The translations under genes were made by a program, and so were the position numbers. Positions 33,727 to 52,569 of a stretch of 64,000 nt of DNA are shown here, piece after piece. Each line of letters starts with the position of its first letter. Position 1 is the first letter of the stretch. This DNA is from Dehalococcoidia bacterium (lineage in GTDB: Bacteria > Chloroflexota > Dehalococcoidia > Dehalococcoidales > RBG-16-60-22): positions 368 through 64,367 of the forward strand of contig DUFF01000023.1 in NCBI GenBank assembly GCA_011174815.1. Direction: 5' to 3'. Below the pieces are notes generated by a model. That model was not told the DNA's origin and did no database searches. It was given only the letters and a program-made list of their open reading frames with translations.

Positions 33727-34079
33727 TCATCATCCTCCGTGTATTCGGGATCCAGAAGGATTTCCTTTAGCATCCAGCGTGCGTATTCTTGCCGTTTTGT
33801 ATCTTTAGCCTGGATGCTCTGCCTAAGTATGTTCCTCCACTCCGGGATACTGGTTCTTCTCCACTCTTCCAGTAACCAGCATTCCGATTCATTCCTAAGC
33901 TGACGACGAAGTTCCTGCAATATAAACTGTTTCGCTTCTTTCAGGTCAGCTATAATATCATCAGGTAAGGGTTGTGGTGCTTGCACCTTGAACCGGTCAT
34001 TCAGATGAATAAATATTGCACCTAAAACCCGACACCTTTCCATCAAATCCACCACATTCCTCATATCTCCATCTCCCAC
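33723..34079 (-). CDS. hypothetical protein
   Basis: This 118-aa ORF overlaps the primase gene end by 19 nt and the next gene start by 4 nt, so it looks translationally coupled. I recognise no motif. Confidence 0.45.
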   Translation of the reverse strand: MGDGDMRNVVDLMERCRVLGAIFIHLNDRFKVQAPQPLPDDIIADLKEAKQFILQELRRQLRNESECWLLEEWRRTSIPEWRNILRQSIQAKDTKRQEYARWMLKEILLDPEYTEDDE

Positions 34080-36088: not shown

Positions 36089-36160
36089 ATCCGTATATTA
36101 AGGGAGTATACGGAACCAATTGAAGGCCAAGAATTGGGTCACCGAGAAATGCGCCGCAAT

Positions 36161-37243
36161 TTAGTGGCTTTGATGTTTCTTGTAGGGCGCTCTTGGTAAC
36201 TTAAGCCCTAGAAGTTTTCCAAGATATTCGGTGCTCCGTTTGACAGTCGCAGGATCGCACTCTGACTGCTTCCTCACACCGTACCTTGTAGAAATGTCCT
36301 CGACAGAAAGCTTTAAATATAATCGATCAAACAACATATCAAAATCACGCTGCCTCCACGTACGATTGGGGCGATAGCCCCACTTCTTTTTCTGCTCGTT
36401 TACCGTGCGACTGTGATTCGGCCCCAAATCTCGAGTTGTTTCCTTTCCAGTCATCGCAATCAACGACCACTCATTTAATGTTCTATCAGATAAGACTCCA
36501 CCTTCACTTGGAATCAGTATGTCCTGTATAGTACGTGGAAACATAGTTCCTAAAAGGCCGTCCGGAGTTGGCTCAGCAAGCTCCTCTTTGGGGATAGGTT
36601 CTAACAAACGAGCCCTATCGTTGGCAAGTAAGAATTCCGGCGCCCACCAGCACTTCAGCCCTGAAGTAAAACATAGTTTTGTTAACTCTCTCTGGTAGTT
36701 AAGTAAGGGCACAACAGGATAACTGATCAAGGTCTTGGTTGCAACGAAGGCTTTTGCAACTAGCTTTGGTGAGAACAGGTGCCATCCGAAGCGTGGCTTC
36801 CACGCTCCCCCAAGTGAATCCCTCAAGTATTTGTTCCTGTAGTAGCGAATGAATTCGGAACGACTTCGTATAGATTGCTGCATAAAAGTATCACGAGCGT
36901 TAAACAGTATTGTATTGAGTCCTTTGATCATCCATATTCCTGCTGCTATGCTTCCCGGCACTATTAACATCATCTGAAAGTTTGAAAGAACCTTATTTGT
37001 TGCTTCACGTGAAGCACCAAACTCTCTTATGTCGAAAGCTGATCGGAGTCTGGATGTCCACTTTGTAATATCAACGCTTGCAGCCAGATACTCAGATTCA
37101 AGTTTATGCTTTTTTGCCCAGAAACACGAAGCTTCTGGTCTTCGTTCATAAGTACCTAAAAGTAGACGTATTGCCATTACATAGTCTAGGAGTTCATTTG
37201 ACCAAGGCAATCTATTGGCGTCTTCAATAGTAAATGGCTTCAT
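36161..37243 (-). CDS. hypothetical protein with possible C-terminal HTH
   Basis: 360 aa with no recognisable catalytic motif. The C-terminal LSVEDISTRYGVRKQSECDPATVKRSTEYLGKLLGL looks HTH-like. It lies at the transition to lower-GC DNA. Confidence 0.5.
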   Translation of the reverse strand: MKPFTIEDANRLPWSNELLDYVMAIRLLLGTYERRPEASCFWAKKHKLESEYLAASVDITKWTSRLRSAFDIREFGASREATNKVLSNFQMMLIVPGSIAAGIWMIKGLNTILFNARDTFMQQSIRSRSEFIRYYRNKYLRDSLGGAWKPRFGWHLFSPKLVAKAFVATKTLISYPVVPLLNYQRELTKLCFTSGLKCWWAPEFLLANDRARLLEPIPKEELAEPTPDGLLGTMFPRTIQDILIPSEGGVLSDRTLNEWSLIAMTGKETTRDLGPNHSRTVNEQKKKWGYRPNRTWRQRDFDMLFDRLYLKLSVEDISTRYGVRKQSECDPATVKRSTEYLGKLLGLKLPRAPYKKHQSH

Positions 37244-37824: not shown

Positions 37825-39984
37825 TTACTTTGCCTTGGGATGGCTGACAAATTTGACCCATATCCTCCTAATGGCATGATACTCTATAGCAGTGAAGAAG
37901 TAAGTGCATAAGATCACTGCGAGAGTTACAAAGGATAAAGCATAGCTTGGTAAATAAATCTGGTAGAACCTTTGGTAGATGGCTTCTCCTCGTTCTGGTG
38001 ATGAAGGAAAGGCAGGCATGAATCCAAGATTCTTCATCGGTTTCTTTCCGTTATACCTCCAGTGGTTTGTACTAATATTCTGAGGAACAGTAAAAATGGT
38101 GTATTTCAAGTTACTACCAGTTATGTGGAATTTTATTGGACTCTTTTTGGTTACTTCAAGATCTTCGGCTTTTTCTTCACAGGCGCTGTCCTCACCGTCT
38201 CCAAGGATGTAAAGATGTTCTTTAACGTCTTGAATTTTACTATAGTTTACATATTCCTCAAGGCTCTTAATATAGATAACGCTACTAACAGCATAAGCTC
38301 TCGCCGTGGGATTCATGTTTTTAAAAAGTGTAATCTTGTCGTTCTTAATCACGGTTTGTAGGTCGTCCTGACGGTAAAGAAAGTCATATTCCCGATAATC
38401 TGATTCATTAAAGAGAATCACGTACTTTATATCTAGCGATAGCAGCATTTCGCCGAAATTGGCGATAGTATCCTTCTTTTGTAATAAAAATTCTATATAC
38501 TGGCTTATGGGATTGAGGCTCTGTGTGAAGATGCCCGGTACCTCGATGTTATCGCCCTGGATTATTGGCTTGTCAAAGAACTTCTGGGCAGGATTTTCTA
38601 GTCTTTTTTCTTTGTTGGGCAACCAGCTAAAATCCATGTATCGGTGCCAGGGAAGCACCAGCACATTAAAATCATCTGTATCTTGGTTGAGATATTGGTT
38701 AATCATGTACCATTCTTGGGGGTAATCTGTTGCCCGCAATTGTCCATAGGAGCCGAACATAGGGAGAGTGTAGATAACTGGTGTAAGTAATGATATAACG
38801 CTCACAAGTACCACAGCGGTCTTTGCCAAAGCTTTACCACTTTTCCCTATTTCTGTGACCAGTTTATTAACTCCAAGACCACCAAGATAAGCGTAAGTAA
38901 GACAGAGAAGCGCAACGAACTTATGCGAGTCCCTGAATGCACGAATAAGGGGGAAGTTCTCCCACAACCACTCAAAAGGGGCTCTGGTTGACGTGATGGT
39001 TGCTGCAATTGCCAAAAAGAGGCTAATCGCACCAATAGTTGCCACTGATGTGACTTTCCATGATATTCTATGCTTAGACTGTCTTCCGATTGTGCCATAT
39101 ATAGCAAAGAAAAGAATGACTAAGAATAATATCCACCACCAGGCTGTGAAGTCTTTGAGGTAGATATAGCCTAATCTCCAAAAACCATGCAATGAAGCCA
39201 CCGTAAAAGCTGTGGATATATTAGGGATATTTTTAGGGGCGAAATAGTTTAAGTCTACCAGTCCGACTTGGCTAAGCAAAGTGTGATCCGCAGTCATGGA
39301 AGGTATTATCCAGTATAGATTGAGCGCACCATATGTGCCTGCTGTTATGGCTACCGACTTCATAAGCCTTAGAAGTACGGGCTTGTTGTCGCTTACTTGC
39401 ATCATTTTAACAATAAACAAGATTGCGAAAGCTAGAATAAGTAAGAATAAGCTATGCACTTGAAATAAGCCTGCTACGGTAGTGAAGATGACCACCTTAA
39501 ACGTTGATTTACAATTCTGTTTTTTCAGGAGTTCTATAAATGCCAGCACAGCAAAAGGGGTGAAGGCATATGCCCAAAGTATTCCCCATTGCCCTGCCAT
39601 GAATCTGGTGTAAGTAAATGGGTTTATTGTATAGAGAAGGCCGGCATAATAGCTGCCGATGCCAAGCTTAGGAAGCAGTTTGTATCCACCCAGACCACAT
39701 AGAAATAATATCAAGAAGAGAATTACTTTCTGGAATACCCAAGCAGGCATAAAATGATATGCCCAATGTTGAATAAGCATATAGGGTGCGGCAGCGGTAA
39801 TCCATCCATCAGCACTTAAGCCATATGTATAAATAGTGATATCTTCATTTGGAGCAAAGACCATGTCAAGGGTGAGGATATATCCAGGATTGAGGAGTTG
39901 CAATAGTACTACCAATGCTAGGAATGCAAAGACAATGTATGGCAGCCACCGGGATATTATCCAATCTTTGGGCTTGTGTCCCAT
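37825..39984 (-). CDS. large polytopic membrane protein, GT-C-fold glycosyltransferase-like, with extracytoplasmic C-terminal domain and terminal TM helix
   Basis: 719 aa. It has roughly 12-13 hydrophobic helices, an acidic motif in the first loop (LTLDMVFAPNED), and a ~250-aa soluble domain. The architecture resembles YfhO/AftD-like GT-C enzymes. Confidence 0.55.
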   Translation of the reverse strand: MGHKPKDWIISRWLPYIVFAFLALVVLLQLLNPGYILTLDMVFAPNEDITIYTYGLSADGWITAAAPYMLIQHWAYHFMPAWVFQKVILFLILFLCGLGGYKLLPKLGIGSYYAGLLYTINPFTYTRFMAGQWGILWAYAFTPFAVLAFIELLKKQNCKSTFKVVIFTTVAGLFQVHSLFLLILAFAILFIVKMMQVSDNKPVLLRLMKSVAITAGTYGALNLYWIIPSMTADHTLLSQVGLVDLNYFAPKNIPNISTAFTVASLHGFWRLGYIYLKDFTAWWWILFLVILFFAIYGTIGRQSKHRISWKVTSVATIGAISLFLAIAATITSTRAPFEWLWENFPLIRAFRDSHKFVALLCLTYAYLGGLGVNKLVTEIGKSGKALAKTAVVLVSVISLLTPVIYTLPMFGSYGQLRATDYPQEWYMINQYLNQDTDDFNVLVLPWHRYMDFSWLPNKEKRLENPAQKFFDKPIIQGDNIEVPGIFTQSLNPISQYIEFLLQKKDTIANFGEMLLSLDIKYVILFNESDYREYDFLYRQDDLQTVIKNDKITLFKNMNPTARAYAVSSVIYIKSLEEYVNYSKIQDVKEHLYILGDGEDSACEEKAEDLEVTKKSPIKFHITGSNLKYTIFTVPQNISTNHWRYNGKKPMKNLGFMPAFPSSPERGEAIYQRFYQIYLPSYALSFVTLAVILCTYFFTAIEYHAIRRIWVKFVSHPKAK

Positions 39985-40017
39985 GTCCTCATGTGCTTTC
40001 TGTGGTAGGCAGGATTT

Positions 40018-40977
40018 CTATATCTCCTCTATCATCCTCTTTATCCAAAGATACGTCCTAGCGATGCCATCTTCTAAGGATACTTTTGGCTCCCAGCCAA
40101 GCATTTTCTTTGCTAGCGTCAGATCGGCATTACGACCCCGCACACCTTGTGGAGCAGATAGGTCATGCTCTTTCTCTATTTTCTTGCCAGATATGCCTAT
40201 GACCATGTCGGCCAAGTCTTCCACTGAGATAAGGCGATCAGAGCCGATATTGAGTGGCTTATCATAATCAGAATCCATGAGACTTACGGTACCCGCGATG
40301 CAATCATCAATATAGCAGTAGGACCTAGTAGCTTTACCATCACCCCAGATTAATATCTTGCCGGGGTCAGAGGCCTCAGCAACCTTACGGCAAATTGCTG
40401 CTGGAGCCTTTTCGCGGCCACCCTTGTAGGTGCCCTCCGGTCCATAGACATTATGGTACCGAGCAATCCTGATATCCAGCCCATAGTCGCTCTTATATGC
40501 CTTCGTCATTTCCTCGGTGAACAACTTTTCCCAGCCGTATGCCTCATTTGGGTCTGCTGGGTACGCATCCTCTTCCTTAAGCCCTAAAACATCCGGATTG
40601 GTCTGCTTATAGTTTGGATAAACACAGGCGCTGGAACTGAAGAAGAACCGTTTTATTTTATTGGCCACCGAGGCCTGCAGCATATTGACATTAATAAGTA
40701 CATTGTCACGCATAACATCAGCGGATACCAAAGTAATAAAGCCTATGCCTCCCATGTTAGCTGCCAGATTATATACTTTATCAATATTCTCTGTTGCACG
40801 CAGGCAGTTGGAATATTCACGCAGGTCCAAGGCGAGCTTTTCGTTACAGTATTCCTCCTTGATATAATTGTCATATTTAATATCGGCAACCCTTACGAAG
40901 TTGCCATGCTCATACAGGTATCTTGCCAGATGGCTTCCGATAAAACCACCACCGCCAGTAACTAGAATCCTTTCCAT
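40018..40977 (-). CDS. GDP-mannose 3,5-epimerase-like NAD-dependent epimerase
   Basis: VTGGGGFIGSHLA, NLAANMGGIGFI, SSACVYP, YGWEKL, YKGGREKAPAAICRK and PQGVRGRNAD closely track the plant GME sequence as I remember it (ADMGGMGFI, KGGREKAPAAFCRK, PEGVRGRNSD). Confidence 0.7.
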   Translation of the reverse strand: MERILVTGGGGFIGSHLARYLYEHGNFVRVADIKYDNYIKEEYCNEKLALDLREYSNCLRATENIDKVYNLAANMGGIGFITLVSADVMRDNVLINVNMLQASVANKIKRFFFSSSACVYPNYKQTNPDVLGLKEEDAYPADPNEAYGWEKLFTEEMTKAYKSDYGLDIRIARYHNVYGPEGTYKGGREKAPAAICRKVAEASDPGKILIWGDGKATRSYCYIDDCIAGTVSLMDSDYDKPLNIGSDRLISVEDLADMVIGISGKKIEKEHDLSAPQGVRGRNADLTLAKKMLGWEPKVSLEDGIARTYLWIKRMIEEI

Positions 40978-41028
40978 TGTGCTTCTCCTTTCCCATGTAT
41001 TTATTTTGAAAATACTAATATTGCCGGT

Positions 41029-41877
41029 TTAGCCTGTATTACTCAGCCGCCTAGCCACGATATTTATGCCCCTTCGGAATGGCGGTATTATGCAAGTAAG
41101 CGGAACATACGCGGCAGCATAGATTGCCCATAGCAACGCAATTCCCAATTTTCCTAAAGGAATATATTTAATCCAGTAGCGCGCATCTAACATATCGCTG
41201 AAACAAGGCAGTTTATCCCAGTACCTATTATGTGATGCCTTGAGAATCTCAAACCCGGAAGACTTAATCTCTTGCACTAGTTCTGACTTTATGTATTCCC
41301 GGTAGTGAAATCGCCCGGGCAGGTCATTTTCCACCCACATCTCCTGGACATGCCAACCTAATAACATCCGTACCCTGTTATATAGACATGCGAAATTGGG
41401 TGTAGAGGTTATGAGTGTACCTCCCGGCTTTAGAACGCGCCAGCACTCCCGCAGGATTGGACCTGGGTGACAAGGGAGGTGCTCTATTACCTCCGCCAAA
41501 GCAACGACATCAAAACATTCATCTGGCCAAGGCAATGCCTCCTTGAGTAGGTCAACTTCCTTAAATTGTATGTTGTATTTTTCACAGCAAGTTTTCTGTA
41601 TATCATTCATGTCTAAGGTGTTGATATCTGCCGCCGGCATCAATCGGCGTAGGATATAGGTAAAAGGACTTACGCCAATATCAAGAATTGATTCAACATG
41701 GGGTATGCGGGTGATTTCTGCTGCGAGAGACTCAAATCGAAACCGGTGTTGCTTAAGATACAATTTTTCAAAATACCCGTCCCGCAGTCCTTCTCTCTCT
41801 AAGGCCCAAAGAGAATATATCTCGTGAAAGGCGGCCCAGAAATTCTTTCCGGAGGCTGTTACCTCATAATCTGCCAT
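41029..41877 (-). CDS. class I SAM-dependent methyltransferase
   Basis: Motif I is ILDIGVSPF. FDVVALAEVIEHL and LKPGGTLITSTPN are typical of Methyltransf_11/23-type enzymes. Confidence 0.75.
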   Translation of the reverse strand: MADYEVTASGKNFWAAFHEIYSLWALEREGLRDGYFEKLYLKQHRFRFESLAAEITRIPHVESILDIGVSPFTYILRRLMPAADINTLDMNDIQKTCCEKYNIQFKEVDLLKEALPWPDECFDVVALAEVIEHLPCHPGPILRECWRVLKPGGTLITSTPNFACLYNRVRMLLGWHVQEMWVENDLPGRFHYREYIKSELVQEIKSSGFEILKASHNRYWDKLPCFSDMLDARYWIKYIPLGKLGIALLWAIYAAAYVPLTCIIPPFRRGINIVARRLSNTG

Positions 41878-41925
41878 TTTTATCTTCCCCGCTAAGCAAA
41901 CTGTTAGAAGCGCTCCATTCTTAGA

Positions 41926-43329
41926 TTAAATATACTTGTTTCTAGGTTTGAGGTTTCGTACTGATGTAATGGTAATCGATATAAGACATGTCAATGCAAT
42001 TATGATGGCTATTAACCTAATATCCAGTGAAGCATTTTTGTTGAATAATCCGGGTAGTGATAAATATTGCATTGTCCAATTAACCATTGGTTCCCAAGGT
42101 ATTATATCCCAGTTAACCGCAAGTGGTAGCCAAATGATGACCGGACCCAATAGCGCCAAAGTCCAAGCGACAAGAGAAAAATTAAGAAGACCATATACAA
42201 AGACTGAAAGATGGAGCAAGGGGATAGTAACGGCCATAAAAGCTAATAAGGGAATATAATAATGCGCTCCTGTATAGGTATATAAAATGGGGAACAGAAG
42301 CAATGCAATTACTGCTAACAGGTAGATAGACTGTGAGAAGTCACCTTGCCTGCGGACGGTAATAGTTGTTAGTAAAGTAATGAATAAGGCGCCGATAACT
42401 AAAAAGCCAATTAGGACCGAAGGGTAGTGCAGGTGACCCCACGTAAAGATGGACTGGCTAATTCTTAGGGGTATGAGTTCGATGAACCATAAATTAATAC
42501 CGCCCAACTGAGGCCACGTAAGGCGTGTTGTTGCACTTTGTCCAATACCAAGCAACTGTCCACCTGGCAGGAAAGCAATAACCGGAATGATGCAGCCAGC
42601 AGCAAACTTGGCCAATGGTTTACAACCGGCAAGCCATCGTAAACGTATTTTATATTTTTCCTTAATTGTTGAGCTGCGATCCGATAAGCTCATAAACCCA
42701 AACCATAACAAAAAGATGCCAATACTTATGCCAAAGAACAAATTTAACGGTTTGAAGAGAAAACCCAAGGAAAAGGCAACGCCAGCTTCGATGTATGACT
42801 TCCTTGTAATTAAATAGGCTGCTAAAAGGGATAATAAGGCTACGATCACGTCATACTGCCCGAAGATACAGCTCTCAATTATGACCATAGGGCTGAGAAA
42901 CCAAAGAGCAAAGGCAAACTTCGCTTTTTTATCACCGGCAAGCCTCCTAACAATGGTGTATATCAACAACCCCACCAGAATATCGGCAACAATCAGCGGC
43001 AATTTTATGGCAACCATCGCGAGCGGTGTGGCCAGACTAGTCATATTAGCTACGGTTTGTAAAAAGCCATTACTAAGTGGTACCGTCAGGTGTGAAGGGT
43101 CAACAAACTGTAAAATTAGTACCAAGGGAAGGGAAATAAGAGTTATCCAAGTCGCCGGGTAAATATTATCAAATGGTGCTCCAGCCCCGGGGCTGATAAT
43201 TGTCCTCAGTGACAGTAGCTGGAAATACTCTGTATCAGGCCAGACTGCTATCAGTGCCAGAACTATCCGTATGATGAGACCAATAAGCAAGATATTTCTT
43301 ATGGGGTGCCGTAGCAATCTTTCCTCCAA
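41926..43329 (-). CDS. polytopic membrane protein, GT-C/DUF2029-like glycosyltransferase candidate
   Basis: 467 aa with more than 10 predicted helices. I recognise no soluble domain. It sits inside the glycosylation cluster. Confidence 0.45.
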   Translation of the reverse strand: MEERLLRHPIRNILLIGLIIRIVLALIAVWPDTEYFQLLSLRTIISPGAGAPFDNIYPATWITLISLPLVLILQFVDPSHLTVPLSNGFLQTVANMTSLATPLAMVAIKLPLIVADILVGLLIYTIVRRLAGDKKAKFAFALWFLSPMVIIESCIFGQYDVIVALLSLLAAYLITRKSYIEAGVAFSLGFLFKPLNLFFGISIGIFLLWFGFMSLSDRSSTIKEKYKIRLRWLAGCKPLAKFAAGCIIPVIAFLPGGQLLGIGQSATTRLTWPQLGGINLWFIELIPLRISQSIFTWGHLHYPSVLIGFLVIGALFITLLTTITVRRQGDFSQSIYLLAVIALLLFPILYTYTGAHYYIPLLAFMAVTIPLLHLSVFVYGLLNFSLVAWTLALLGPVIIWLPLAVNWDIIPWEPMVNWTMQYLSLPGLFNKNASLDIRLIAIIIALTCLISITITSVRNLKPRNKYI

Positions 43330-43384
43330 CTTACCGGTAGGTGGAACTACCTCATATACTTTGTTTCCGACTCACTACCGGTTT

Positions 43385-45016
43385 TTACGGTGTATTGATT
43401 ATTGTTGATTTGGGCTCTCCTGTTTCAAGGTAGTAGCTTCGATAAAAGAAATGATATATGTCGGTAGAATAAATAAACACATTTACCGGCTCACCAATTG
43501 CTACCGGCAAAGCCAGTGTATCTTCAATGGATGTCCCGCCTTTTAAGAAATAATCGCGATACACCATCTTAAACCTAGTTTCTAGGATGCTAGATTGCAG
43601 GATCTGCATTATGTCCTTTGAGATAGTCTCCTGTCCGTAAGGTCCATTTACACCACCGCCAAAGATAATGATACTACCCTTACCCAGTTGCAAGGCAGCA
43701 ATCGATGTTCTAGGGGATTCATCATGGGTGACCTTGCCCAAGACTTTTCCTCCCATCAATTCAACTATTTCAACTTCCGGCCCTGTTGTAGCTAGGTTGT
43801 GACTCAGGCCTAAACCCTCCGATATAACTGTAGCATTTTCTGCTTCCAGATTTGCTATTGAATTAGGTATTATAGACACTTTTTGCAAAATATTTACTCC
43901 GGTGCAGTACAGGTTGAAACTCACCATGCCACTTTGGTTGGTAACAAAGTCAGCTACTAATGCAAGTGACTTGATATCGGATAGGTCAGGCGGTGTTTCC
44001 GAGGTGTACGAAGGTTCTGATAGATTTATCATCACGTCTTGCCATTTCCCCAAGTCGCCTACCATTTGGGAGATGTAGTAATCGTGAAAGTTACTCAAAC
44101 TATCATTGATACGCAGGTAGAAGCGTTCTACCGAGGATGGGTCGTCCAATTTCATGCGAAACTGCAGGTTCTGGTAGGTATTCCAGTCTCGTTGTGTCTC
44201 TAGGGTACTAATTATCCAGGCGGCTTTTCCAGCTTCAGAAATATCTTCATACTGCCATACGAAGCCCTCATCCGGCTCGGTTATAGGATTTAATATGGCT
44301 AGGCCACTATTATTAAGATCACCTGCCGACCATGATAATGGATTCCGAGGGCCGACCTCCACTATGCTCGAATACAGTGTCATAAGGTCTCGATAGTATT
44401 CTGTACCTCCTAGTAAAATGACGGTACCGCCATTTGATATCCAGTCAAGCAGTTCCTTCTGATTTAGTGACGGTGGTATCATTTCCCAGTACTCGACGAC
44501 AGCTGGTAGTACCAGGATGCCATCGGTTTCCTCTGTCAGTATTTGCTGCAGTTTATCATCACCGACCATTATCGCACTCCCTTTAATCCCCCGTAGGCTG
44601 AGCTCCGAAGCGAGAATATCTCCCAGACCGGCTGCTATTATAGCGCGGGGCTGGGTAGAATGATAAACTCTGTAATCGTTTTCGCTCTCGTAATAGATAA
44701 ATATCTTAAGTTCTTCAGGCGGGCGAGCCCCGGGAATAGCCACAACTCGGAGCGGTAAATCATATTTTCCCGCTGATACTTGGTATCCGATTTCTAAATA
44801 CGAGCCACTTCCTATACCAGCGTTTAAGTCAATAGACAACGCCTGTTTAGACTTAGCACTCTCAATGTTAAATCCAGGCCCTTCGGTAAATAATAAATAG
44901 TATTGTCCGCCAACGAGTATTGCAACTACTAGGAGTAAAGCAATTAAAATACGATTATTATTCACGATGATGACAACCCTGCAATCTAAGCCTTTTTTAA
45001 TATTTTCCTGAGTCAC
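43385..45016 (-). CDS. N-terminally anchored extracytoplasmic protein of unknown function (DUF4350-like segment?)
   Basis: 543 aa with a single N-terminal helix (ILIALLLVVAILVGG). The segment ILVLPAVVEYWEMIPPSLNQKELLDWISNGGTVILLGG resembles the GATase1-like DUF4350 family. Assignment confidence is low. Confidence 0.45.
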   Translation of the reverse strand: MTQENIKKGLDCRVVIIVNNNRILIALLLVVAILVGGQYYLLFTEGPGFNIESAKSKQALSIDLNAGIGSGSYLEIGYQVSAGKYDLPLRVVAIPGARPPEELKIFIYYESENDYRVYHSTQPRAIIAAGLGDILASELSLRGIKGSAIMVGDDKLQQILTEETDGILVLPAVVEYWEMIPPSLNQKELLDWISNGGTVILLGGTEYYRDLMTLYSSIVEVGPRNPLSWSAGDLNNSGLAILNPITEPDEGFVWQYEDISEAGKAAWIISTLETQRDWNTYQNLQFRMKLDDPSSVERFYLRINDSLSNFHDYYISQMVGDLGKWQDVMINLSEPSYTSETPPDLSDIKSLALVADFVTNQSGMVSFNLYCTGVNILQKVSIIPNSIANLEAENATVISEGLGLSHNLATTGPEVEIVELMGGKVLGKVTHDESPRTSIAALQLGKGSIIIFGGGVNGPYGQETISKDIMQILQSSILETRFKMVYRDYFLKGGTSIEDTLALPVAIGEPVNVFIYSTDIYHFFYRSYYLETGEPKSTIINTP

Positions 45017-45025
45017 TTCGTGTTT

Positions 45026-46009
45026 TCAGTGTTTGACTGGACTAAGACGAAAACGTACTATTTTCGGAAAGCGTACCATATTCCACCAGATAGCTTTTGC
45101 ATCAGCAATTACTTCGCCAAACCTGCGCCGTCTTGAGAACATCGAAAAGCCTTTCTGAGGAAAAATCCGGTACCCAAATGGCAGCAACAGAATCAGGTCA
45201 AGAAGAAAGATTATGCTGTAACCGACCAGACCACAAGGCAACAGGTACCAAGGATAATACTTTAAGACCAAGTTAAGCATGCTCCTGCGCAGGCAGTAGA
45301 AGGGAAACGCCGTACTTTTACCAATGGTGGCGCTGGTTCTATGCCAAGTAATGGCTGTGGGTACAAGCAATACCTTATAGCGATTGCTTCGCGCCCGGAA
45401 ACAATATTCAGCATCCTCTCCAAAAAAGTAATAGTCCTGATCAAAGGGGCCAAGTTCCTGATAGGCTAAGTTCGGCATAGCAAGCATGTTCAAATAGTCC
45501 ACTTCCTGGATGTCTTCTTTCGGACATTTCTCTATGGGGAAACCATTATAACGCTTGATAGAGACACCAAATGGATAAAGATGTTTCATACCGAGGTCGT
45601 CTACCAATCTCTCGCTGCCGTGTTGTAACCTTGCACCGCCGACAATAACTTTGTGGTTATCTTGATTTTGAATAACTTCGACAAGGCGACCCAACCAGTT
45701 CGGTTCAGCGGTTTCATCAGTATTAAAATCAATAACTAAAATTTCTCCATTAGCTACATTGACTCCGCAGTTAATCGCCTCTCCAATACCTACCTTCTTA
45801 TCTAAGGCGACTAACTTGACCCCTGGGAACTGCTCTCTTATGAGCTTCTTTGATTCATCTGTTGAACATGCATCGACAACAACAACTTCATAGTTGGAAT
45901 AATTTAGTTTGCCCAGTGAATCTAGACATGCTGGCAATAACTTCTCTCCATTAAAATTCGAGATAATGATAGATACCTTTGGTGCTGTCTTTTTCCGATC
46001 TACACTCAT
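45026..46009 (-). CDS. family 2 glycosyltransferase
   Basis: VSIIISNFNGEKLLPACLDSL...YEVVVVDACSTDES and the DxD-like FGEDAEY are present. Confidence 0.8.
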   Translation of the reverse strand: MSVDRKKTAPKVSIIISNFNGEKLLPACLDSLGKLNYSNYEVVVVDACSTDESKKLIREQFPGVKLVALDKKVGIGEAINCGVNVANGEILVIDFNTDETAEPNWLGRLVEVIQNQDNHKVIVGGARLQHGSERLVDDLGMKHLYPFGVSIKRYNGFPIEKCPKEDIQEVDYLNMLAMPNLAYQELGPFDQDYYFFGEDAEYCFRARSNRYKVLLVPTAITWHRTSATIGKSTAFPFYCLRRSMLNLVLKYYPWYLLPCGLVGYSIIFLLDLILLLPFGYRIFPQKGFSMFSRRRRFGEVIADAKAIWWNMVRFPKIVRFRLSPVKH

Positions 46010-46184
46010 TTGTACATTGTCACCAATCGTTTTTGACTATTGACCTGCTCCGCCCTTGTAAAGGAACCGAGATTAGCTTCGAACATTACCAGTATTTCTA
46101 TCGTGTCCAGAGCTTGAGTCCTTAAATCCTGAAGTATCCAACAATCTCGGTACTGGCAGCTGTGAGCTTGCCGTTTGTTTGCTT

Positions 46185-47150
46185 CTAATCACGCCCTTTA
46201 GTCGATTTTGTGGATGAAATCATCTCCCAGATAAACGGGTTCTTCCTACGAATAAAGAAATCGAAACTTCCAGCCGCCCTTGCATAAATTTCAAGTATAA
46301 TACTCACAAAAGTCCACGCAATAGATTTGAAGCTAAGGCTTGTACATCGAGGTATCAGTTTTAGCAATCTCAGACAATTGAGGCTTGCTACCCGATAGTT
46401 CGATGTTTTCATCAGGTGAAGATGGCCAACGTATATCCGGCGTCTCTGCTTTACAAAGTCCGCTACCGTTTCAGGTCCCTTGTTGTACACTATTGCTTCT
46501 GGAACATATCGCAGTGAGTAACCCTTCTTCCTTATTGCTGCCTCAATTGCTGCTTCGTCGACAGCGGTATCTTCAGGAATAAAATCAACTATGTTTCTGA
46601 ACGCTATGTATTCTCCCAGTCTTGGCTCGATTAATGATAATTCATGGTTCATGTCCCATATAAGTCTGCTAACAAACCCCATTAATGTAGTTTGATCATT
46701 AACTGGAATCGGACGTCCGCCGGCCATTCCCACAATAGGGTCGAAGAAGACACTACTCAAAGATTCGCAACTTGTTTCCGTTAGTCTAGTGTCAGCACTA
46801 ACAAGAATGCAGATATCACCTCGTGAAGCTCTTAGGAAGAGATTAACTGCAGCTGCCTTGCCTCTACGTTTAGCTTCTGTAATAAGGTGTATTCTTTGAT
46901 CACCGTCTTGGAAGTGCCTGACTATATCCTCGGTTCCGTCACAACAGGCAGAGGAGACAACTACGATCTGAACAATTTCTAGTTTGTGTAGCACTTGGTT
47001 TTGGATTGACATCAAGAGGTGTCCGATATTCTGCTCTTCATTGTACGCACAGATTCCAATACTAGCTGTAATTCTTCTGTCATTTTGTCCCTCGCTGGTC
47101 ACAGCCGATCTCTCTTCTTGTTGAGCCTCAACTCGTTGGATCTGGAACAT
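46185..47150 (-). CDS. family 2 glycosyltransferase
   Basis: Track ORF 46185..47192. The ATG at 47150 is preceded by GGAAGGA. ASIGICAYNEEQNIGHLL, VVVSSACCDGTEDIV and ILVSADT are GT2-like motifs. Confidence 0.75.
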   Translation of the reverse strand: MFQIQRVEAQQEERSAVTSEGQNDRRITASIGICAYNEEQNIGHLLMSIQNQVLHKLEIVQIVVVSSACCDGTEDIVRHFQDGDQRIHLITEAKRRGKAAAVNLFLRASRGDICILVSADTRLTETSCESLSSVFFDPIVGMAGGRPIPVNDQTTLMGFVSRLIWDMNHELSLIEPRLGEYIAFRNIVDFIPEDTAVDEAAIEAAIRKKGYSLRYVPEAIVYNKGPETVADFVKQRRRIYVGHLHLMKTSNYRVASLNCLRLLKLIPRCTSLSFKSIAWTFVSIILEIYARAAGSFDFFIRRKNPFIWEMISSTKSTKGRD

Positions 47151-47167
47151 CTTACATATTCCTTCCC

Positions 47168-48535
47168 CTACTTTTGGATAACTACGACCCAATGGACGAA
47201 GCCACCATACGGCGAAAGATGAAAGCGATGGCTAGAAAATCCAACTTGAGCTAAAAGCGAATTTACTATCGTACGCTTGAAAAGGGTGTATTCAGTGGGA
47301 AAGAAAATTATGCGCTTTCTTGAGACTACCCTAGCGAGAGTTTCCGTTATTTCCACCGCAAGGTGCACCGGTCCTAATCTCCAAGGCCAGAAAAGGAGGC
47401 CAACAGAATCACCTTTAAGGACACGCTTGAACTCGGTAAGGATGGCTATGAGCTCATCCTCCTTAAAATGCTCCATCACCCCAAAGTTCCATATTCCATC
47501 TATCGAATCAGATCTGAACGGCAGATTAAAGATGTCCCCCTGAACATGAAAGTCGATTACTAGAACCTCTTTAGCCTTCAGCAGTGCAGGGCGTGAAATA
47601 TCAAGGGCTAGTAGTTTCCTTTCTCCTTTGTTTATCTTGGAGGAAGATTGGCTGCTTCCTGAGCCGCACTCAATAAAATTACCACTTTTGGCAAAGTATA
47701 TGTCGCTATAATGCTTCATCTCATTGGCTAGAAGGGTTTTTCGGTAAGCTGACACAATCCAACCAAAGAGTCCAGTCTGGCTCAGGCCACTCTGCCAATG
47801 TCTATCCCAATCCTTGGTATTAATATGAGAGGTGACCCTGCCGTGCGAAAGAATATGCCTGACTTTCTCCAGATATAAGTGATAGAGTAAATTCAAGTAT
47901 CTTAGGTACTCTTTCAGCTCAAGCTTGCTTTTCCCTGCTTGCCTGATCCTGAAAATGTAAGGCACCTCCGCGACCTTGCTATATTCCCCCAGAGCTAAAA
48001 TCTCCAGTAGAATCTTGTATCCTATAGTCCTAAACGTTCTTCCTTGAATGACCTTTTTCCTAATAAAAAAGAAACCACTCATAGGATCTCTGACCTTCGT
48101 TATAGGTCTAGCCATTAGAATGGCTACCCTTGATACTACCAGTCTAAACCACGGCCAGTTCTCTACCCCGCCACCGGGAACATATCTGCTGCCTATGGCT
48201 ACATCGTAGCCATAGGCAATCTTGCCCACAAGTTTATCTATCACCTGGGGGTCATGCTGTAAGTCAGCATCTATAACTCCAACTATACTCCCTTCAGCGC
48301 CCTTAAATCCTGCCAGTATCGCGGAAGCCAATCCGAGCTTCCGTTCCCGCCTTATAACTGTGATGGGATACCTGCCAGCCAAATCTTCTGCTACTTCAGC
48401 GGTGCCGTCAGGGCTGTTGTCATCGACAATTATAATCTCGTAGTCCCTTGTACTTAAAGTCTGAGCTAACCTTTCCACGAGAGGTTTGATATTGTCTTTT
48501 TCTTGGTAAGTAGGTACTACCACTGAAATTTTCAT
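47168..48535 (-). CDS. fusion protein: polyprenyl-phosphate sugar synthase-like GT2 (Dpm1/GtrB type) + C-terminal class I SAM methyltransferase
   Basis: The N-terminal half has ISVVVPTYQEKDNIKPLVERL...IIIVDDNSPDGT...GVIDADLQHDP. The C-terminal half has FIECGSGSSQ...LLALDIS...DGIWNFGVMEHF. Confidence 0.75.
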   Translation of the reverse strand: MKISVVVPTYQEKDNIKPLVERLAQTLSTRDYEIIIVDDNSPDGTAEVAEDLAGRYPITVIRRERKLGLASAILAGFKGAEGSIVGVIDADLQHDPQVIDKLVGKIAYGYDVAIGSRYVPGGGVENWPWFRLVVSRVAILMARPITKVRDPMSGFFFIRKKVIQGRTFRTIGYKILLEILALGEYSKVAEVPYIFRIRQAGKSKLELKEYLRYLNLLYHLYLEKVRHILSHGRVTSHINTKDWDRHWQSGLSQTGLFGWIVSAYRKTLLANEMKHYSDIYFAKSGNFIECGSGSSQSSSKINKGERKLLALDISRPALLKAKEVLVIDFHVQGDIFNLPFRSDSIDGIWNFGVMEHFKEDELIAILTEFKRVLKGDSVGLLFWPWRLGPVHLAVEITETLARVVSRKRIIFFPTEYTLFKRTIVNSLLAQVGFSSHRFHLSPYGGFVHWVVVIQK

Positions 48536-48608
48536 TGTTTATTCCTCGGAGAGAGTGAAAGTATGAATATTGTATTTAATATTCCCTCCTAGCGAAATAT
48601 TAGCCAAA

Positions 48609-49859
48609 TCAATTATGGCGATGGAAAAAAGGAAGCATCGAAAATGGAGACAGTACAGCACATGCAAGCAGCACGTTGACCATTTGCCCAATGCCAGAAT
48701 GGAATGCAACTATCAGAAAAATCTCGAGAAGCATTACCCCTAGCAGAGAGAAGGCCACTTTTGTTTGATTCAATGACAGCAAGTAACTCATTGCCAAAAA
48801 CGAAACAGCTAGGAAACCCATTGCCAGTCCGTATGTTGCAAGATATGTTCCAATAAGGGGATACTTGCCATCAAAGAGAAACTGAGCTAAATGATGAGGA
48901 AATAGAGCATAGACCACCACCACACTGCCGGCAATTAGAACAGTTAGTATCATAGCCCTCGCAAATGGACCCCGATGGTCCCCGCTACGTTCAAAGAGTT
49001 CTGATGTCTTGGGAAACATGGCTGCTGCTATACCTACGGGAGCATAGAAAGCGACTCTACCCAGAACAGACATTGCTGAGTAGTTACCGGCATCAGTAGC
49101 AGTCAGATAATGTTTCGCGAGGATCACGTCAATGTTAATGAGCACAGTTACGCACGAGATTGCTAGTAGAGTAAGGCCAGCGTAAGAACGAACATCGGGA
49201 AGTGACACACGCTCATTCCTAACGGATAATAGATTGCGGAGAGGTAAAAACGTAAAAATCAAAACTAGGAAGAACGCAACAGGAATCGCAGTTAGAGCAC
49301 CCTGAACTCCAAAACCACACTGGACAAGAAAAACACCGAGTACTAACCTGAGAAATCCCGCCAACACCTGACTTGACCCGAGGGGCACAAACTTTTGTAG
49401 TCCCTGCAGAGTTCCCAAGTTCACTGAGAGCATAAGAACGATGAAAATAGCCGAAAATACAATAATGGGATAGATAATGCTATCCAGCTTGAGAAATCGT
49501 GAAAGCAAAGGACTAAGTAAGGCCAGAATAGCAAAACCACCTATCCCGGCAAGCAGCATTTTTGTGAAAAAAAGGCGCCATACATAGTTCACCCCCCCAA
49601 GTCTACCCTCAGCTACAAGTTTGGAAGTGAATTTAGCTACTGCGATTGTAATAGCCTGAGAAACGACTATTAAGATCACAAACAGCGAGGTCAGGCTGAA
49701 AAGAACGCCATACTCTTGGGTTGGCAATAACACGCCCATGGCTAACTGGTAGAGATAGTTAAAAAGACCACCCAAAATGCCAAAGGCCACCATGATGAGA
49801 CCGTGCTTAGTCATATCGTCAATCATCCCGCCTAGCTTAATAAGGTTAAACTTGTTCAC
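48609..49859 (-). CDS. Wzx-like oligosaccharide/polysaccharide flippase (MOP superfamily)
   Basis: 416 aa with about 12 helices. The composition is typical of polysaccharide biosynthesis (PST family) flippases. Its position heads the glycosylation cluster. Confidence 0.65.
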   Translation of the reverse strand: MNKFNLIKLGGMIDDMTKHGLIMVAFGILGGLFNYLYQLAMGVLLPTQEYGVLFSLTSLFVILIVVSQAITIAVAKFTSKLVAEGRLGGVNYVWRLFFTKMLLAGIGGFAILALLSPLLSRFLKLDSIIYPIIVFSAIFIVLMLSVNLGTLQGLQKFVPLGSSQVLAGFLRLVLGVFLVQCGFGVQGALTAIPVAFFLVLIFTFLPLRNLLSVRNERVSLPDVRSYAGLTLLAISCVTVLINIDVILAKHYLTATDAGNYSAMSVLGRVAFYAPVGIAAAMFPKTSELFERSGDHRGPFARAMILTVLIAGSVVVVYALFPHHLAQFLFDGKYPLIGTYLATYGLAMGFLAVSFLAMSYLLSLNQTKVAFSLLGVMLLEIFLIVAFHSGIGQMVNVLLACAVLSPFSMLPFFHRHN

Positions 49860-50010: not shown

Positions 50011-50460
50011 TTAATTTAGAGTTACCGACATTATAGCCTCAGGAGCAGGTGGCCGGTAGCCTAATGAGCTATATGGTCGTACCTGATTTTACTCCCTCTT
50101 CTAATGCTCAAGCAATACCTTCGCTTCAGTTAAATTGGTAAACACCTCCCGAGTCAGCAGCCCGTCTCTCAACTTCCCATTGAAAGATTCGATATAGCCG
50201 TTCTCCCAGGGACTTTCCGATTCGATGAATAACGTCTTCACACTAACACGACTCAACCATCTACGTACCGCCCTAGTGATAAATTAAGGTCCGTTGTCTG
50301 ATTTGAGGTGTTCCGGTATACCCCTAAAAATGATTAGTTGAAACAGCTGGTCAATAACGTCCTGTGAAGTGATAGGTCTCTATACCAGTATCGCCAAGCA
50401 TTTTCTGGTGTATTAATTGATAATATTGAGGATACGAAATGCTCTTCCTTTTTGGAGGCA
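50011..50460 (-). pseudogene. relic of an IS3-family transposase OrfB (rve/DDE integrase core C-terminal half) with at least five in-frame stops
   Basis: My minus-strand translation is GRAFRILNIIN*YTRKCLAILV*RPITSQDVIDQLFQLIIFRGIPEHLKSDNGP*FITRAVRRWLSRVSVKTLFIESESPWENGYIESFNGKLRDGLLTREVFTNLTEAKVLLEH*KRE*NQVRPYSSLGYRPPAPEAI. SDNGPEF, PWENGYIESFNGK and RPHSSLGY are IS3 OrfB hallmarks. Confidence 0.85.
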
Positions 50461-50517: not shown

Positions 50518-50940
50518 TTAACGGAAGACTATGACTTTTATAAATATTAATGGGAAAACGAACAGTTCTAATTGAAGAACAAAGAGTATCCAAGCCGAAC
50601 TTATTAAAAAGATTTCATAAGTTATGAAATAAAACAAGATTACAAGAATCACAATGCAGCCAATTACTGCTGACCAAGACAAAAATGTCCGGCAACTTCT
50701 TATGCTTTTATCAGAAACTCGTAATTCCTTAACTAAGATCTCATAATTCCAGATCACCTTAATAAGAAGAATAACTGAAAAACCAACAAGAGCAGTTGAA
50801 GCGATGAGTAGTGAGCGTAAAAGGCTGATTTTATACTCTATCCCTAATGGCCAATTTATGAAAACTGCAATTAAAGCCCACCCTCCTATCAAGATAAAGG
50901 CAAGAAGTATTTTCAACAATATGGACATTGTATTTTTCAC
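50518..50940 (-). CDS. small polytopic membrane protein, paralog of 51015..51623
   Basis: 140 aa with 4 hydrophobic helices. It aligns along its whole length with the C-terminal ~140 aa of the neighbouring ORF. The DNA is very AT-rich. Confidence 0.55.
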   Translation of the reverse strand: MKNTMSILLKILLAFILIGGWALIAVFINWPLGIEYKISLLRSLLIASTALVGFSVILLIKVIWNYEILVKELRVSDKSIRSCRTFLSWSAVIGCIVILVILFYFITYEIFLISSAWILFVLQLELFVFPLIFIKVIVFR

Positions 50941-51014
50941 TTTAACTTCCGATATTCTACTACATCGGGCTACTACATAAATCTAAATATTATGTGACCG
51001 ATCATCTAATGTAA

Positions 51015-51623
51015 TCAATGTAAAACAATAATTCTTGCAAAGAGCAGAGGGATAATTAATAAGGCTAATTGAAGTATAAAAAATACCCAGGCCATATAAA
51101 CTATATTAATCTCATAAATTACGAAATAGACCATGATAGCTAGAATCGTAAAACAACCAGAAGTTACTGATTGGCATATCAACACCCTTAATTTCTTTGT
51201 TCTGATATCTGATATCCCAAGCTTTACGTTAGACCCACTGTTATTGCGAACCATTTCAGGTAGAATAATAACAACAAAGCCAGCTAGTGCCGATGTAGCA
51301 ATAAGAACTGACTGCAATAGTTCAACTTTCATCATTATTTCTACGGGCCAATCACCAAAGAATATGATGGATGCAAACAATCCTGCAACAATCACAACGA
51401 TTACTAATGGTAAATTAGTTATTATTGACCGTATGATAGCTTTATTGTATTTTACGAATAAAGCCAGAAGGATAATACCTGCCAATGCTGATAAGATATT
51501 AGATACAAGTTGTAATAGCTTGACCTCCCCCTCTCTTTCTGGAGGTGGACCTGCAAAAAAAAGTAGTGCTCCTATGGTAATTGTAATAACAATCGCTAGT
51601 ATAATCCTTCCAGTATTTTTCAT
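51015..51623 (-). CDS. polytopic membrane protein, paralog of 50518..50940 with a ~60-aa N-terminal extension
   Basis: 202 aa. Compare GDWPVEIMMKVELLQSVLIATSALAGF...YFVIYEINIVYMAWVFFILQLALLIIPLLFARIIVLH with INWPLGIEYKISLLRSLLIASTALVGF...YFITYEIFLISSAWILFVLQLELFVFPLIFIKVIVFR. Confidence 0.55.
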   Translation of the reverse strand: MKNTGRIILAIVITITIGALLFFAGPPPEREGEVKLLQLVSNILSALAGIILLALFVKYNKAIIRSIITNLPLVIVVIVAGLFASIIFFGDWPVEIMMKVELLQSVLIATSALAGFVVIILPEMVRNNSGSNVKLGISDIRTKKLRVLICQSVTSGCFTILAIMVYFVIYEINIVYMAWVFFILQLALLIIPLLFARIIVLH

Positions 51624-51867
51624 TCTTGCCTTTACATTCGGTTTTGCCTAAATATTATAGCTCCTAACACCGATATAACCATAGTCAATTATTGACGTTT
51701 TTAAAAGATGAGGGAAATAATATTTTGGAGATGTATTATGGTTAATTATTTCAAAAGAATGAGACATTCGATATTCTTCCCAGATACTCAGAAACAATTG
51801 ACTAAAGTTCAATTTATTTTGATGATTCGTTCGAAAACTTATAGGACCTGTCCATCCAGTCAGTCAA

Positions 51868-52503
51868 TCAATATAACCTGCCGTTCTGCAGGAACTTGAT
51901 TGTAATTCTGCGGTTTAGAAGTTCCCACGCGAACAACACGAATGCTATAAAGCCGATTATCTCTGGTATATAAACTGCCGGTTCATTTAATAAAACATAG
52001 AAGACTTTGCTTAAGTAATCGAAAGTTTCAGTCTTTTCAAAGCCAAAACCTAAAATTGGCCAGAACAGTGTTTTGGGTGTCTGCCACATCTTATCCAATA
52101 ATAGGTGAAAAACCGTGCCTATAGATAGAGCCAATCCCCATGTTTTACCTGAATATCCCCTAATAAAAAGTCCAGCAACCATTAACAATATGAGAAACAG
52201 CAAGGTATGGGAGAATATCCTTCCGTTACTGTAAGTTTCTTGGAACAAGAATATCCCAACCGGCTTATCAATAATATCGGGTAGCATTGACCCTACAAGA
52301 AGAAATCTTATATCCACGTGGTTTGCTAGCGACCTGAAAAACGACATCCTATTATCTGGCTGGATTTTTAAATGAGAACTGTCACTGGTCGGGGAGCTTC
52401 CTCCTACCCTATCTTCTGTAATTCTATTGCGAAGCTTATCTGTCAGCCTAAATCCGAGGGCAGTTGCAGCAAGCGTTATTCCAATATGACCAAACAATAA
52501 CAT
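51868..52503 (-). CDS. membrane-bound metal-dependent hydrolase (YdjM/DUF457-like)
   Basis: Track ORF 51868..52569. The ATG at 52503 gives MLLFGHIGITLAA, the typical family opening. LPDIIDKP and SHT...HLLLD are conserved His/Asp motifs. Confidence 0.6.
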   Translation of the reverse strand: MLLFGHIGITLAATALGFRLTDKLRNRITEDRVGGSSPTSDSSHLKIQPDNRMSFFRSLANHVDIRFLLVGSMLPDIIDKPVGIFLFQETYSNGRIFSHTLLFLILLMVAGLFIRGYSGKTWGLALSIGTVFHLLLDKMWQTPKTLFWPILGFGFEKTETFDYLSKVFYVLLNEPAVYIPEIIGFIAFVLFAWELLNRRITIKFLQNGRLY

Positions 52504-52569
52504 TTGATTCCCGCTTTTGGCATAATAACAGACAATACAATTTGCGACAATTAGTGAAACTAGAAACAA

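Follow-up and report, generated by a model that had tools for sequence, protein, structure and literature searches.

A strain-variable ssrA island of a Dehalococcoidia bacterium carries a predicted polyprenyl-phosphate-dependent envelope-glycan cassette

The 64,000-nucleotide stretch of DNA analysed here (the window) comes from contig DUFF01000023.1 of a Dehalococcoidia bacterium, an affiliation with which the island family, the taxonomy of the cargo homologues and the gene content agree. Within it, a mobile island of 25.6 kb has integrated at the 3′ end of the transfer-messenger RNA (tmRNA) gene ssrA. Nine genes within this island form a cassette of glycosylation-type functions. We propose, with a probability of roughly 0.7, that this cassette is the cargo of a Dehalococcoides-type ssrA-specific island and that it encodes a polyprenyl-phosphate-dependent pathway adding a strain-specific, methylated mannose and/or L-galactose/L-gulose glycan to the cell envelope. 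The assignments of fold, family and topology given below come from tool results; the substrates, the order of steps and the acceptor are what we infer. Three features make the locus of interest: the documented polymorphism between genomes with and without the island, the occurrence of a GDP-mannose 3,5-epimerase (GME) in a prokaryote, and an uncharacterised family of membrane glycosyltransferases of the GT-C fold class.

The boundaries of the island are well defined. The ssrA gene was located by ARAGORN at 28493–28845 on the plus strand and matches Rfam RF00023 over its full length with 164.8 bits; its 3′ end is the integration site on the attL side. A repeat search of the window found a 38-nt direct repeat with its left copy at the 3′ end of ssrA (28818–28855, +) and its right copy, attR, at the far end of the island (54424–54461, +), the first 32 of 32 nt being identical and 36 of 38 overall. 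The 28-nt core of this repeat, which corresponds to the last 28 nt of ssrA, is present in exactly two copies in the window, for zero expected by chance, and neither additional ssrA repeats nor tandem islands were found there. Immediately inside the left repeat lies an integration and replication module (28778–37243), recognised by Pfam and by gene order and sizes, with all of its genes on the minus strand. It encodes a large serine recombinase of 542 aa (28778–30406), whose gene overlaps the 3′ end of ssrA and whose domains are Resolvase, Recombinase and Zn_ribbon_recom, a small serine recombinase of 209 aa with a Resolvase domain, a 210-aa ParB_N protein and a 239-aa Mom homologue (E 2e-63), all assigned by Pfam. 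The module also encodes a 290-aa coiled-coil protein of weak SMC/JetC-like similarity, a primase/DUF3631 protein of 675 aa and an uncharacterised protein of 360 aa. Both serine recombinases are full-length, and together they would integrate and excise the island at the ssrA 3′ end. The GC content changes in steps: the left flank and host stand at ~0.55, the integration module at 0.50, the nine-gene cassette at 0.43 (12 points under the host) and a module at the right-hand end at ~0.38.

Exact-protein look-ups led to contigs of other samples whose flanks are 99.8–99.9% identical to the window. In one of these, L109 (ENA ERZ27275860 k141_3025405), window positions 17014–28855 are fused directly to 54424–54584 at 98.8–99.9% identity and no island is present; this contig is the empty attB site and fixes the right-hand end of the island. 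The island is therefore strain-variable, being present in some near-identical genomes and missing from others. The sample that yielded the empty site also yielded a contig with the island's epimerase gene (L016), and island-bearing and island-free genotypes were both detected in one set of samples. A further contig (L011) stops exactly at the first base of attR (54424). Elsewhere the exact cassette was found linked only to the DUF3631 island backbone (L013 and other samples). The original prediction, made from the sequence of the window, had described the cassette as horizontally mobile. Consistent with this, the cassette is neither universal nor fixed, as the empty site and the constant association with the island backbone show. 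Cell surfaces probably differ between strains through presence or absence of the island. Two contigs have variant right ends: in L009 a different IS110 element (70% identity) is found and homology resumes at 54074, while L006 carries a 78%-identical YdjM region and an additional helix-turn-helix (HTH) gene. These variants suggest repeated site-specific insertion or exchange of IS110 elements at the right end of the island.

The integration module of the ssrA-specific genomic islands (ssrA-GIs) of Dehalococcoides is made of DsiB, DsiA, ParBc and Mom (McMurdie et al. 2011, PMC3146451), and the module in the window matches it in gene order and in near-identical protein sizes. The features in common with the ssrA-GIs of Dehalococcoides and Dehalogenimonas (PMC3146451, PMC13390414) are insertion at the 3′ end of ssrA accompanied by a direct repeat, a reverse-strand CcrB-like serine recombinase of ~540 aa, a small serine recombinase of ~200 aa, a ParB-domain protein of 210 aa, Mom, a primase, a low-GC cargo unlike the integration module, and a presence that varies between strains. 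The reverse complement of the Dehalococcoides ssrA direct-repeat primer (PMC3146451) is a single base off the window repeat. There are also differences. The window repeat measures 32–38 nt against 20 nt in Dehalococcoides, and the 290-aa coiled-coil ORF stands where ssrA-GIs have a RecF-like gene of ~150 aa. The host GC of ~0.55 is higher than that of ssrA-GI hosts, and no reductive dehalogenase (rdh) gene was seen among the left-flank and other window open reading frames (ORFs) scanned. The reported cargo of ssrA-GIs consists of reductive dehalogenase operons, CRISPR modules and hypothetical genes, whereas the island in the window carries a 12-kb glycan cassette together with a low-GC membrane-protein/IS110 module. 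In Dehalococcoidia, ssrA islands are known mainly for carrying reductive dehalogenase genes; here the same machinery moves an envelope-glycan pathway.

The cassette consists of nine ORFs of 282–719 aa, all on the minus strand, which span 37825–49859. Analysis of the ORFs showed that the count and coordinates initially given were correct, and all nine gene assignments made at that stage were upheld by family, fold and topology searches. The region is 96% coding, with gaps of 9–175 nt and one overlap of 25 nt, and its plus-strand ORFs are short and give no grounds to call them genes. Promoter and terminator scans remained at or below shuffle expectation, save for a terminator-like hairpin just downstream of the last gene (37719–37702).

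The first gene of the cassette (48609–49859) encodes a protein of 416 aa with 11 hydrophobic segments. Its ~100 homologues, at 40–62% identity, mostly carry PF01943/PF13440 (Polysacc_synt/Polysacc_synt_3), and by this transitive evidence the protein is predicted to be a Wzx/MOP-type flippase of lipid-linked glycans. The second gene (47168–48535) encodes a 455-aa fusion of a glycosyltransferase family 2 (GT2) domain of the polyprenyl-phosphate mannose/hexose synthase (DPMS) type to an S-adenosylmethionine (SAM)-dependent methyltransferase, as assigned by PDB and Pfam searches. Residues 1–220 match the DPMS of Pyrococcus furiosus (5mlz) with an E-value of 5e-69, the next matches being ArnC and GtrB-type enzymes at 1e-16 to 1e-19, and a DAD (DxD) motif is found at position 89. 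The Methyltransf_11 domain (residues 289–376, Pfam) stands where archaeal DPMS has transmembrane (TM) helices, and no hydrophobic or TM segment was detected in the 455-aa protein, unlike archaeal DPMS and GtrB with their C-terminal TM helices. Since relatives of DPMS lacking TM helices exist, such as human DPM1 and the catalytic domain of Ppm1, the protein could nevertheless act as a polyprenyl-phosphate synthase.

Two further GT2 enzymes are encoded in the cassette, one of 335 aa (46185–47192; PF00535 at 6e-20 and PF13632) and one of 327 aa with a C-terminal membrane segment (45026–46009; PF00535 at 5e-24; TM 260–278). Both show weak NCBIfam similarity at best to any named equivalog. A synthase-type exopolysaccharide role was considered for the 335-aa enzyme and rejected, as the protein has no TM helices and only weak similarity to PgaC/NodC. 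A second methyltransferase, a class I SAM-dependent enzyme of 282 aa with a C-terminal anchor, is encoded at 41029–41877 (Methyltransf_11 at 9e-12; TM 246–264). Methylation most likely takes place on the lipid-linked sugar in the cytoplasm, prior to flipping, because the chemistry depends on SAM, one methyltransferase domain is fused to a cytoplasmic DPMS domain and the other has tail-anchor topology; the SAM methyltransferase AglP provides an analogy (PMC3871713). The extracytoplasmic methylation originally put forward is unlikely on the same grounds.

The 319-aa product of the gene at 40018–40977 is, by sequence, predicted to be a true GME orthologue with its catalytic motifs intact. It matches plant GME (PDB 8sg0 and 2c59) over its full length at an E-value of ~1e-104, the next enzyme class following at 5e-32. 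The motifs GGGGFIG, SSAC (at 115), YGWEK (at 147) and GGREKAP (at 186) are conserved, so that the Gly-rich and YxxxK motifs of the short-chain dehydrogenase/reductase (SDR) superfamily are kept, as are the Cys and Lys acid/base positions. Plant GME has an N-terminal extension of ~30 residues and belongs to the ascorbate pathway, whereas the protein in the window is without this extension and is encoded in a prokaryotic envelope-glycan operon. In such a setting a GME predicts rare L-hexoses on the cell surface.

Two polytopic enzymes would act on the outer face of the membrane. The first, of 467 aa (41926–43329), was assigned by Pfam and PDB searches as a PIG-M/GT87/PMT_2-like GT-C glycosyltransferase. 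Its Pfam matches, all at or above the cut-offs, are PMT_2 (34.1 bits), GT87, formerly DUF2029 (25.5 bits), and Alg6_Alg8 (25.5 bits); it also matches chains 23gf_B/23gx_B of GPI mannosyltransferase 1 (PIG-M) with an E-value of 2e-6 and has 11 TM or hydrophobic segments. It is thus predicted to be a GT-C enzyme of the kind that uses polyprenyl-phosphate-mannose.

The second, of 719 aa, is encoded by the last gene of the cassette (37825–39984). It is an AftD/MmpA-like membrane protein of the GT-C type, whose external domain is accompanied by a C-terminal TM segment. Pfam family GT-C_AftD (PF11847) matches it at 38 bits, over the cut-off. An AlphaFold2 (AF2) model built from an alignment of 43 sequences, with a predicted local distance difference test (pLDDT) score of 88.6 and a predicted template-modelling (pTM) score of 0.88, has ~13 helices, an external domain made of an alpha/beta part and a beta-sandwich, and a C-terminal helix. 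When the model was compared with known structures using Foldseek, all 17 matches at E ≤ 0.001 were GT-C enzymes (AftD, STT3, PglB and AftA), with ArnT at 6.6e-3. AftD ranked first (6w98; E 4e-9, TM-score 0.51); STT3/PglB proteins from yeast, human and bacteria came next, and AftA after them. Across the region aligned by fold, sequence identity to AftD is ~12%, and the three carbohydrate-binding module (CBM) domains and the acyl carrier protein (ACP)-binding helices of AftD are absent. At least 90% of the 43 homologues keep residue D40 (in LTLDM), which lies just after the first TM segment in the first external loop and would belong to the same position class as the essential D41 of AftD (10.1101/2019.12.22.885152). 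An identity as an STT3-type oligosaccharyltransferase was rejected, as the protein has no STT3 Pfam match and no WWD motif; its resemblance to STT3/PglB is at the level of the fold only (TM-score 0.40–0.46). Of the two GT-C-like enzymes originally predicted, the 719-aa protein is thus backed by the fold of its predicted structure, and the 467-aa protein by sequence family only.

The remaining gene of the cassette (43385–45016) encodes a 543-aa extracytoplasmic protein anchored at its N-terminus (TM 23–41). Searches of Pfam (even at E 10), NCBIfam and PDB sequences, and a PDB profile search with the family alignment, returned nothing for it. Its AF2 model (pLDDT 89.7) shows a two-lobed alpha/beta domain into which a CBM-like beta-sandwich is inserted, and Foldseek matches it to CBM11, CBM16 and CBM4 beta-sandwiches at a TM-score of ~0.6 on the target. 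The family is rare: just one relative came out of a word-indexed search across 5.8 billion proteins, and an exhaustive HMMER search found 74 representatives. Many of these are ~350 aa long and match the N- and C-terminal lobes without residues ~210–390, which form the CBM-like insert. From its model, the protein is probably displayed externally and glycan-binding. Two of the 39 family members scanned match DUF4350, weakly.

Based on these assignments, we propose the following route for the biosynthesis of the glycan. GDP-mannose would come from the host, because no man genes for its synthesis were found among the island ORFs scanned, and would in part be converted by the island's GME into GDP-L-galactose and GDP-L-gulose; here the orthology is established by sequence and the activity is presumed. 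On the cytoplasmic face, the DPMS-type GT2 would charge polyprenyl phosphate with a hexose, the other two GT2 enzymes may lengthen the resulting lipid-linked oligosaccharide, and the fused and tail-anchored methyltransferases would O-methylate the lipid-linked product. The Wzx-type flippase would then carry the lipid-linked sugar or oligosaccharide across the membrane. Outside, the 467-aa PIG-M/GT87-like protein would probably transfer single mannoses from polyprenyl-phosphate-mannose, and the 719-aa protein would probably load the final acceptor with the flipped glycan or with additional residues; candidates for this acceptor are S-layer proteins, other proteins of the envelope, lipoglycans and wall polymers. 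The anchored 543-aa CBM-like protein would bind the glycan outside the cell. Precedents for the individual steps are found in AglD, AglR, AglS and AglP of Haloferax volcanii (PMC3871713), in the GtrA/GtrB/Gtr-type and CsbB/GtcA/YfhO three-component systems (PMC7389260) and in mycobacterial Ppm1, PimE and AftD. We infer, in addition, a switching of surface glycans, a protein or else a lipid as the acceptor, and an L-sugar product.

Several observations weigh against this proposal. No priming phosphoglycosyltransferase (PF02397/PF00953) was found among the island ORFs scanned, and the 416-aa putative flippase has no direct match of its own in Pfam (even at E 10), NCBIfam or a PDB sequence search. 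A non-catalytic role of the 719-aa protein is also conceivable, given that its closest characterised sequence relative is MmpA, a transport factor for trehalose lipids without a recognised catalytic domain (PMC8698533). Because the cassette has no priming enzyme, the oligosaccharide would have to start with the DPMS-type enzyme priming a monophosphate carrier, as AglJ does in Haloferax, or with an enzyme of the host. The description of the pathway as complete-looking was therefore too strong: the island is without a priming phosphoglycosyltransferase and without a gene for GDP-mannose synthesis, and it offers no identifiable acceptor.

The nature of the acceptor is also where the most credible alternative departs from our proposal, and sequence cannot settle it. 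It is possible, though distinctly less probable, that the cassette makes not a glycoprotein but a membrane-anchored glycolipid or lipoglycan, like the mycobacterial phosphatidylinositol mannosides, lipomannan and lipoarabinomannan (PIM/LM/LAM) or the lipoglycan of Thermoplasma. The DPMS-type enzyme would then make polyprenyl-phosphate-mannose, and the GT87/PIG-M-like and the AftD-like GT-C enzyme would lengthen a mannan on a lipid anchor at the outer side of the membrane. The gene set indeed parallels the polyprenyl-phosphate-mannose-dependent enzymes of mycobacteria and corynebacteria (Ppm1, PimE/GT87, AftD and MmpA/Rv0226c; PMC8698533, 10.1101/2019.12.22.885152), with which it has in common a DPMS-type synthase and a methyltransferase partner in the locus. 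The 467-aa protein matches both GT87 and PIG-M, while the 719-aa protein has AftD as its best fold and MmpA as its best sequence family. MmpA itself acts in the handling of glycolipids, from a conserved locus with the methyltransferase-like partner MtrP (PMC8698533). However, no enzyme that would form a lipid anchor, such as a PimA-like GT4 or an acyltransferase, is encoded in the cassette, and the Wzx-type flippase and two extra GT2 enzymes are better suited to a lipid-linked oligosaccharide route. The organism, unlike the bacteria of this comparison, is not actinobacterial, and nothing points to a mycolate pathway.

The likeness to MmpA also raises the question of whether the 719-aa protein is a transferase at all. 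The NCBIfam equivalog model for MmpA (NF053599) aligns to its residues 16–563 with an E-value of 2.7e-56, beyond which the protein has a C-terminal extension of ~150 residues, and MmpA, although needed for the acetylation and transport of trehalose lipids, is reported to have no recognisable catalytic domain (PMC8698533). The 719-aa protein might by this analogy be an accessory or export factor, leaving all external transfer to the 467-aa GT-C enzyme. We consider this unlikely, as the score of 191.3 bits falls under the family cut-off of 210, the Asp in the first external loop is near-invariant and R351, D352 and H447 are conserved in the family as well, and the fold matches catalytic GT-C enzymes over ~650 columns. 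Finally, it is highly improbable that the cassette is an ordinary ancestral chromosomal envelope cluster beside ssrA, with the island a decayed and immobile remnant and no horizontal switching: homologous clusters are chromosomal in other Dehalococcoidia and the right flank of the island itself opens with glycan-type genes, but this reading is contradicted by the empty-site contig with its 99.9% identical flanks, by the intact repeats, full-length recombinases and depressed GC content, and by the best homologues of the cargo proteins searched, which reach only 36–62% identity in 5.8 billion proteins.

By its predicted functions, the cassette has the three components of the glycosylation modules of phages (GtrA/GtrB/Gtr-type) and of the CsbB/GtcA/YfhO systems (PMC7389260, PMC4728340): a GT2 enzyme making polyprenyl-phosphate sugars in the cytoplasm, a flippase, and a GT-C transferase that acts outside. 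Such modules are often found on mobile elements that integrate at tRNA or tmRNA genes and change the surface serotype (PMC7389260, PMC4728340). The window cassette differs from these three-component modules in its predicted flippase, of the 12-TM Wzx/MOP type instead of a small GtrA/GtcA protein, and in its additional genes for a second GT-C enzyme, two GT2 enzymes, two methyltransferases, a nucleotide-sugar epimerase and a CBM-like protein; its carrier is a serine-recombinase island and not a phage. Surface glycans had been put forward as a new cargo class. This holds for the family of ssrA islands, in that a limited comparison with the literature found no report of a glycan pathway as their cargo. 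It does not hold in general, since such mobile modules are well known on serotype-converting phages (PMC7389260): the island family is a known one, and mobile serotype modules made of a flippase, a polyprenyl-phosphate-sugar synthase and a GT-C enzyme are classic on enterobacterial phages.

Haloferax volcanii's pathway for N-glycosylation (AglJ/G/I/E, AglD, AglR, AglS, AglP and AglB; PMC3871713) likewise uses DPMS-like GT2 enzymes acting on polyprenyl monophosphate, and its target is the S-layer glycoprotein of a cell without peptidoglycan (PMC3871713). It includes counterparts of several cassette proteins, namely AglR, a Wzx-like flippase linked to dolichol-phosphate-mannose (Dol-P-Man), AglS, an external GT-C-type Dol-P-Man mannosyltransferase, and AglP, a SAM methyltransferase that acts on the lipid-linked sugar. 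Unlike Haloferax, the cassette has no STT3/AglB oligosaccharyltransferase, and the NCBIfam Agl models were matched far below their cut-offs.

The 719-aa protein belongs to a large family (PF11847/DUF6541); no mention of DUF6541 was found in the literature. A protein search returned more than 260 relatives, mostly from Chloroflexota metagenomes and with a best identity of 52%. A scan of one genome per species, pattern-seeded and capped at 80 loci so that proportions are indicative only, found at least 79 loci, of which 19 are in Chloroflexota (mostly Dehalococcoidia), 42 in archaea, 9 in members of the candidate phyla radiation (CPR) and 9 in other bacteria. The archaeal holders include Methanoperedens and other Halobacteriota, Bathyarchaeia, Aenigmatarchaeota and Archaeoglobus. 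In the contexts looked at in detail, genes of this type end clusters that consist of a flippase, sugar-nucleotide genes, GT2 enzymes, a PMT_2-type GT-C enzyme, methyltransferases and the AftD-like GT-C enzyme itself. One such cluster, on a 55-kb contig (L001/L002/L004), has insertion sequence (IS) and integrase genes on both sides, and another, on a 2.3-Mb Dehalococcoidia scaffold (L003/L026), has no mobile genes nearby.

Neighbouring genes were counted from crude ORF calls scanned against Pfam, without a background control. Near the 19 Chloroflexota loci (117 ORFs) these counts gave 7 methyltransferases, 6 type I phosphodiesterases, 6 GT4 enzymes, 5 SDR sugar enzymes, 5 flippases, 4 GT2 enzymes and 3 pyruvyl transferases. 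Within 3.5 kb of 25 archaeal loci, Polysacc_synt flippases were found at 12 and SDR enzymes at 8, and phmmer detected a Polysacc_synt flippase near 28 of 81 loci of the family. STT3 is absent from the frequent neighbours. By these counts, the Wzx-type flippase appears to be the most constant partner of the family, and in the window the flippase and the 719-aa protein are the products of the first and last genes of the operon. The surroundings of the 79 other loci of the family yielded no GME orthologue. When 81 loci were searched by tblastn and phmmer, neither a GME orthologue nor a homologue of the 467-aa or 543-aa protein was found, and true DPMS orthologues were present in just three. The combination of GME, DPMS-methyltransferase fusion, PIG-M-like GT-C enzyme and CBM-like protein thus appears specific to the window cassette and not part of a conserved synteny block, as is expected of a hypervariable surface-glycan locus.

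The analysis also points to a large GT-C family, as yet uncharacterised, whose members are found in archaea, Chloroflexota and CPR. As a more speculative and rather doubtful extension, the AftD/MmpA-like GT-C enzyme and the Wzx-type flippase might constitute an uncharacterised system, independent of STT3, through which lipid-linked glycans reach the envelope once flipped and which is common to archaea, Dehalococcoidia and CPR, the ssrA island having mobilised a version that makes a methylated L-galactose/L-gulose glycan. If this were true, bacteria without peptidoglycan would exchange their surface "serotypes" by horizontal transfer, as Gtr phages allow enterobacteria to do. The island in any case gives a concrete handle on surface variation in hard-to-culture organisms whose envelopes are poorly known, and such variation could bear on phage receptors, predation and aggregation.

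The island is a mosaic. A remnant of an IS3-type transposase (51 aa, 50101–50256, −; PF13683 rve_3, 1e-11) separates the flippase gene from the low-GC right-hand module; it forms the right edge of the glycan cassette and marks a seam. In the right-hand module (50518–53884, −; GC ~0.38), two small membrane proteins that are paralogues of each other are encoded alongside a membrane protein of the YdjM family and an IS110 transposase. The paralogues (50518–50940 and 51015–51623, −) are polytopic, share 39% identity over 132 residues and form the lowest-GC part of the island (~0.36), with no Pfam or PADLOC family match. The IS110-family transposase is located directly inside attR, in the stretch 52607–54423. 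A 78-aa HTH_3 protein encoded at 54135–54371 (+) is strongly similar to the control (C) proteins of restriction-modification systems (PADLOC, 5e-27), with no restriction-modification genes close to it; PADLOC detected no defence system among the non-glycan genes of the island. A metagenome scan with the island primase returned short contigs only, among which no second glycan-carrying island was found. One of the related primase-bearing elements (L105) carries MmeI-like methylase/restriction genes as cargo.

The first host genes past attR (54592–58472, +) encode a polysaccharide pyruvyl transferase, a PF12831 FAD oxidoreductase and an uncharacterised protein of 389 aa. Homologues of the first two adjoin genes of the 719-aa family elsewhere (L003/L026, L029, L054 and L077–L083), so that the island may have integrated next to an envelope-glycan locus native to the host. 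On the other side of the island, the left flank (13820–27907) encodes large Fe-S/flavin oxidoreductases of 1010, 653 and 906 aa with a CCG-domain (heterodisulfide-reductase-like) protein, as well as a 2-oxoacid:ferredoxin oxidoreductase and a succinyl-CoA synthetase.

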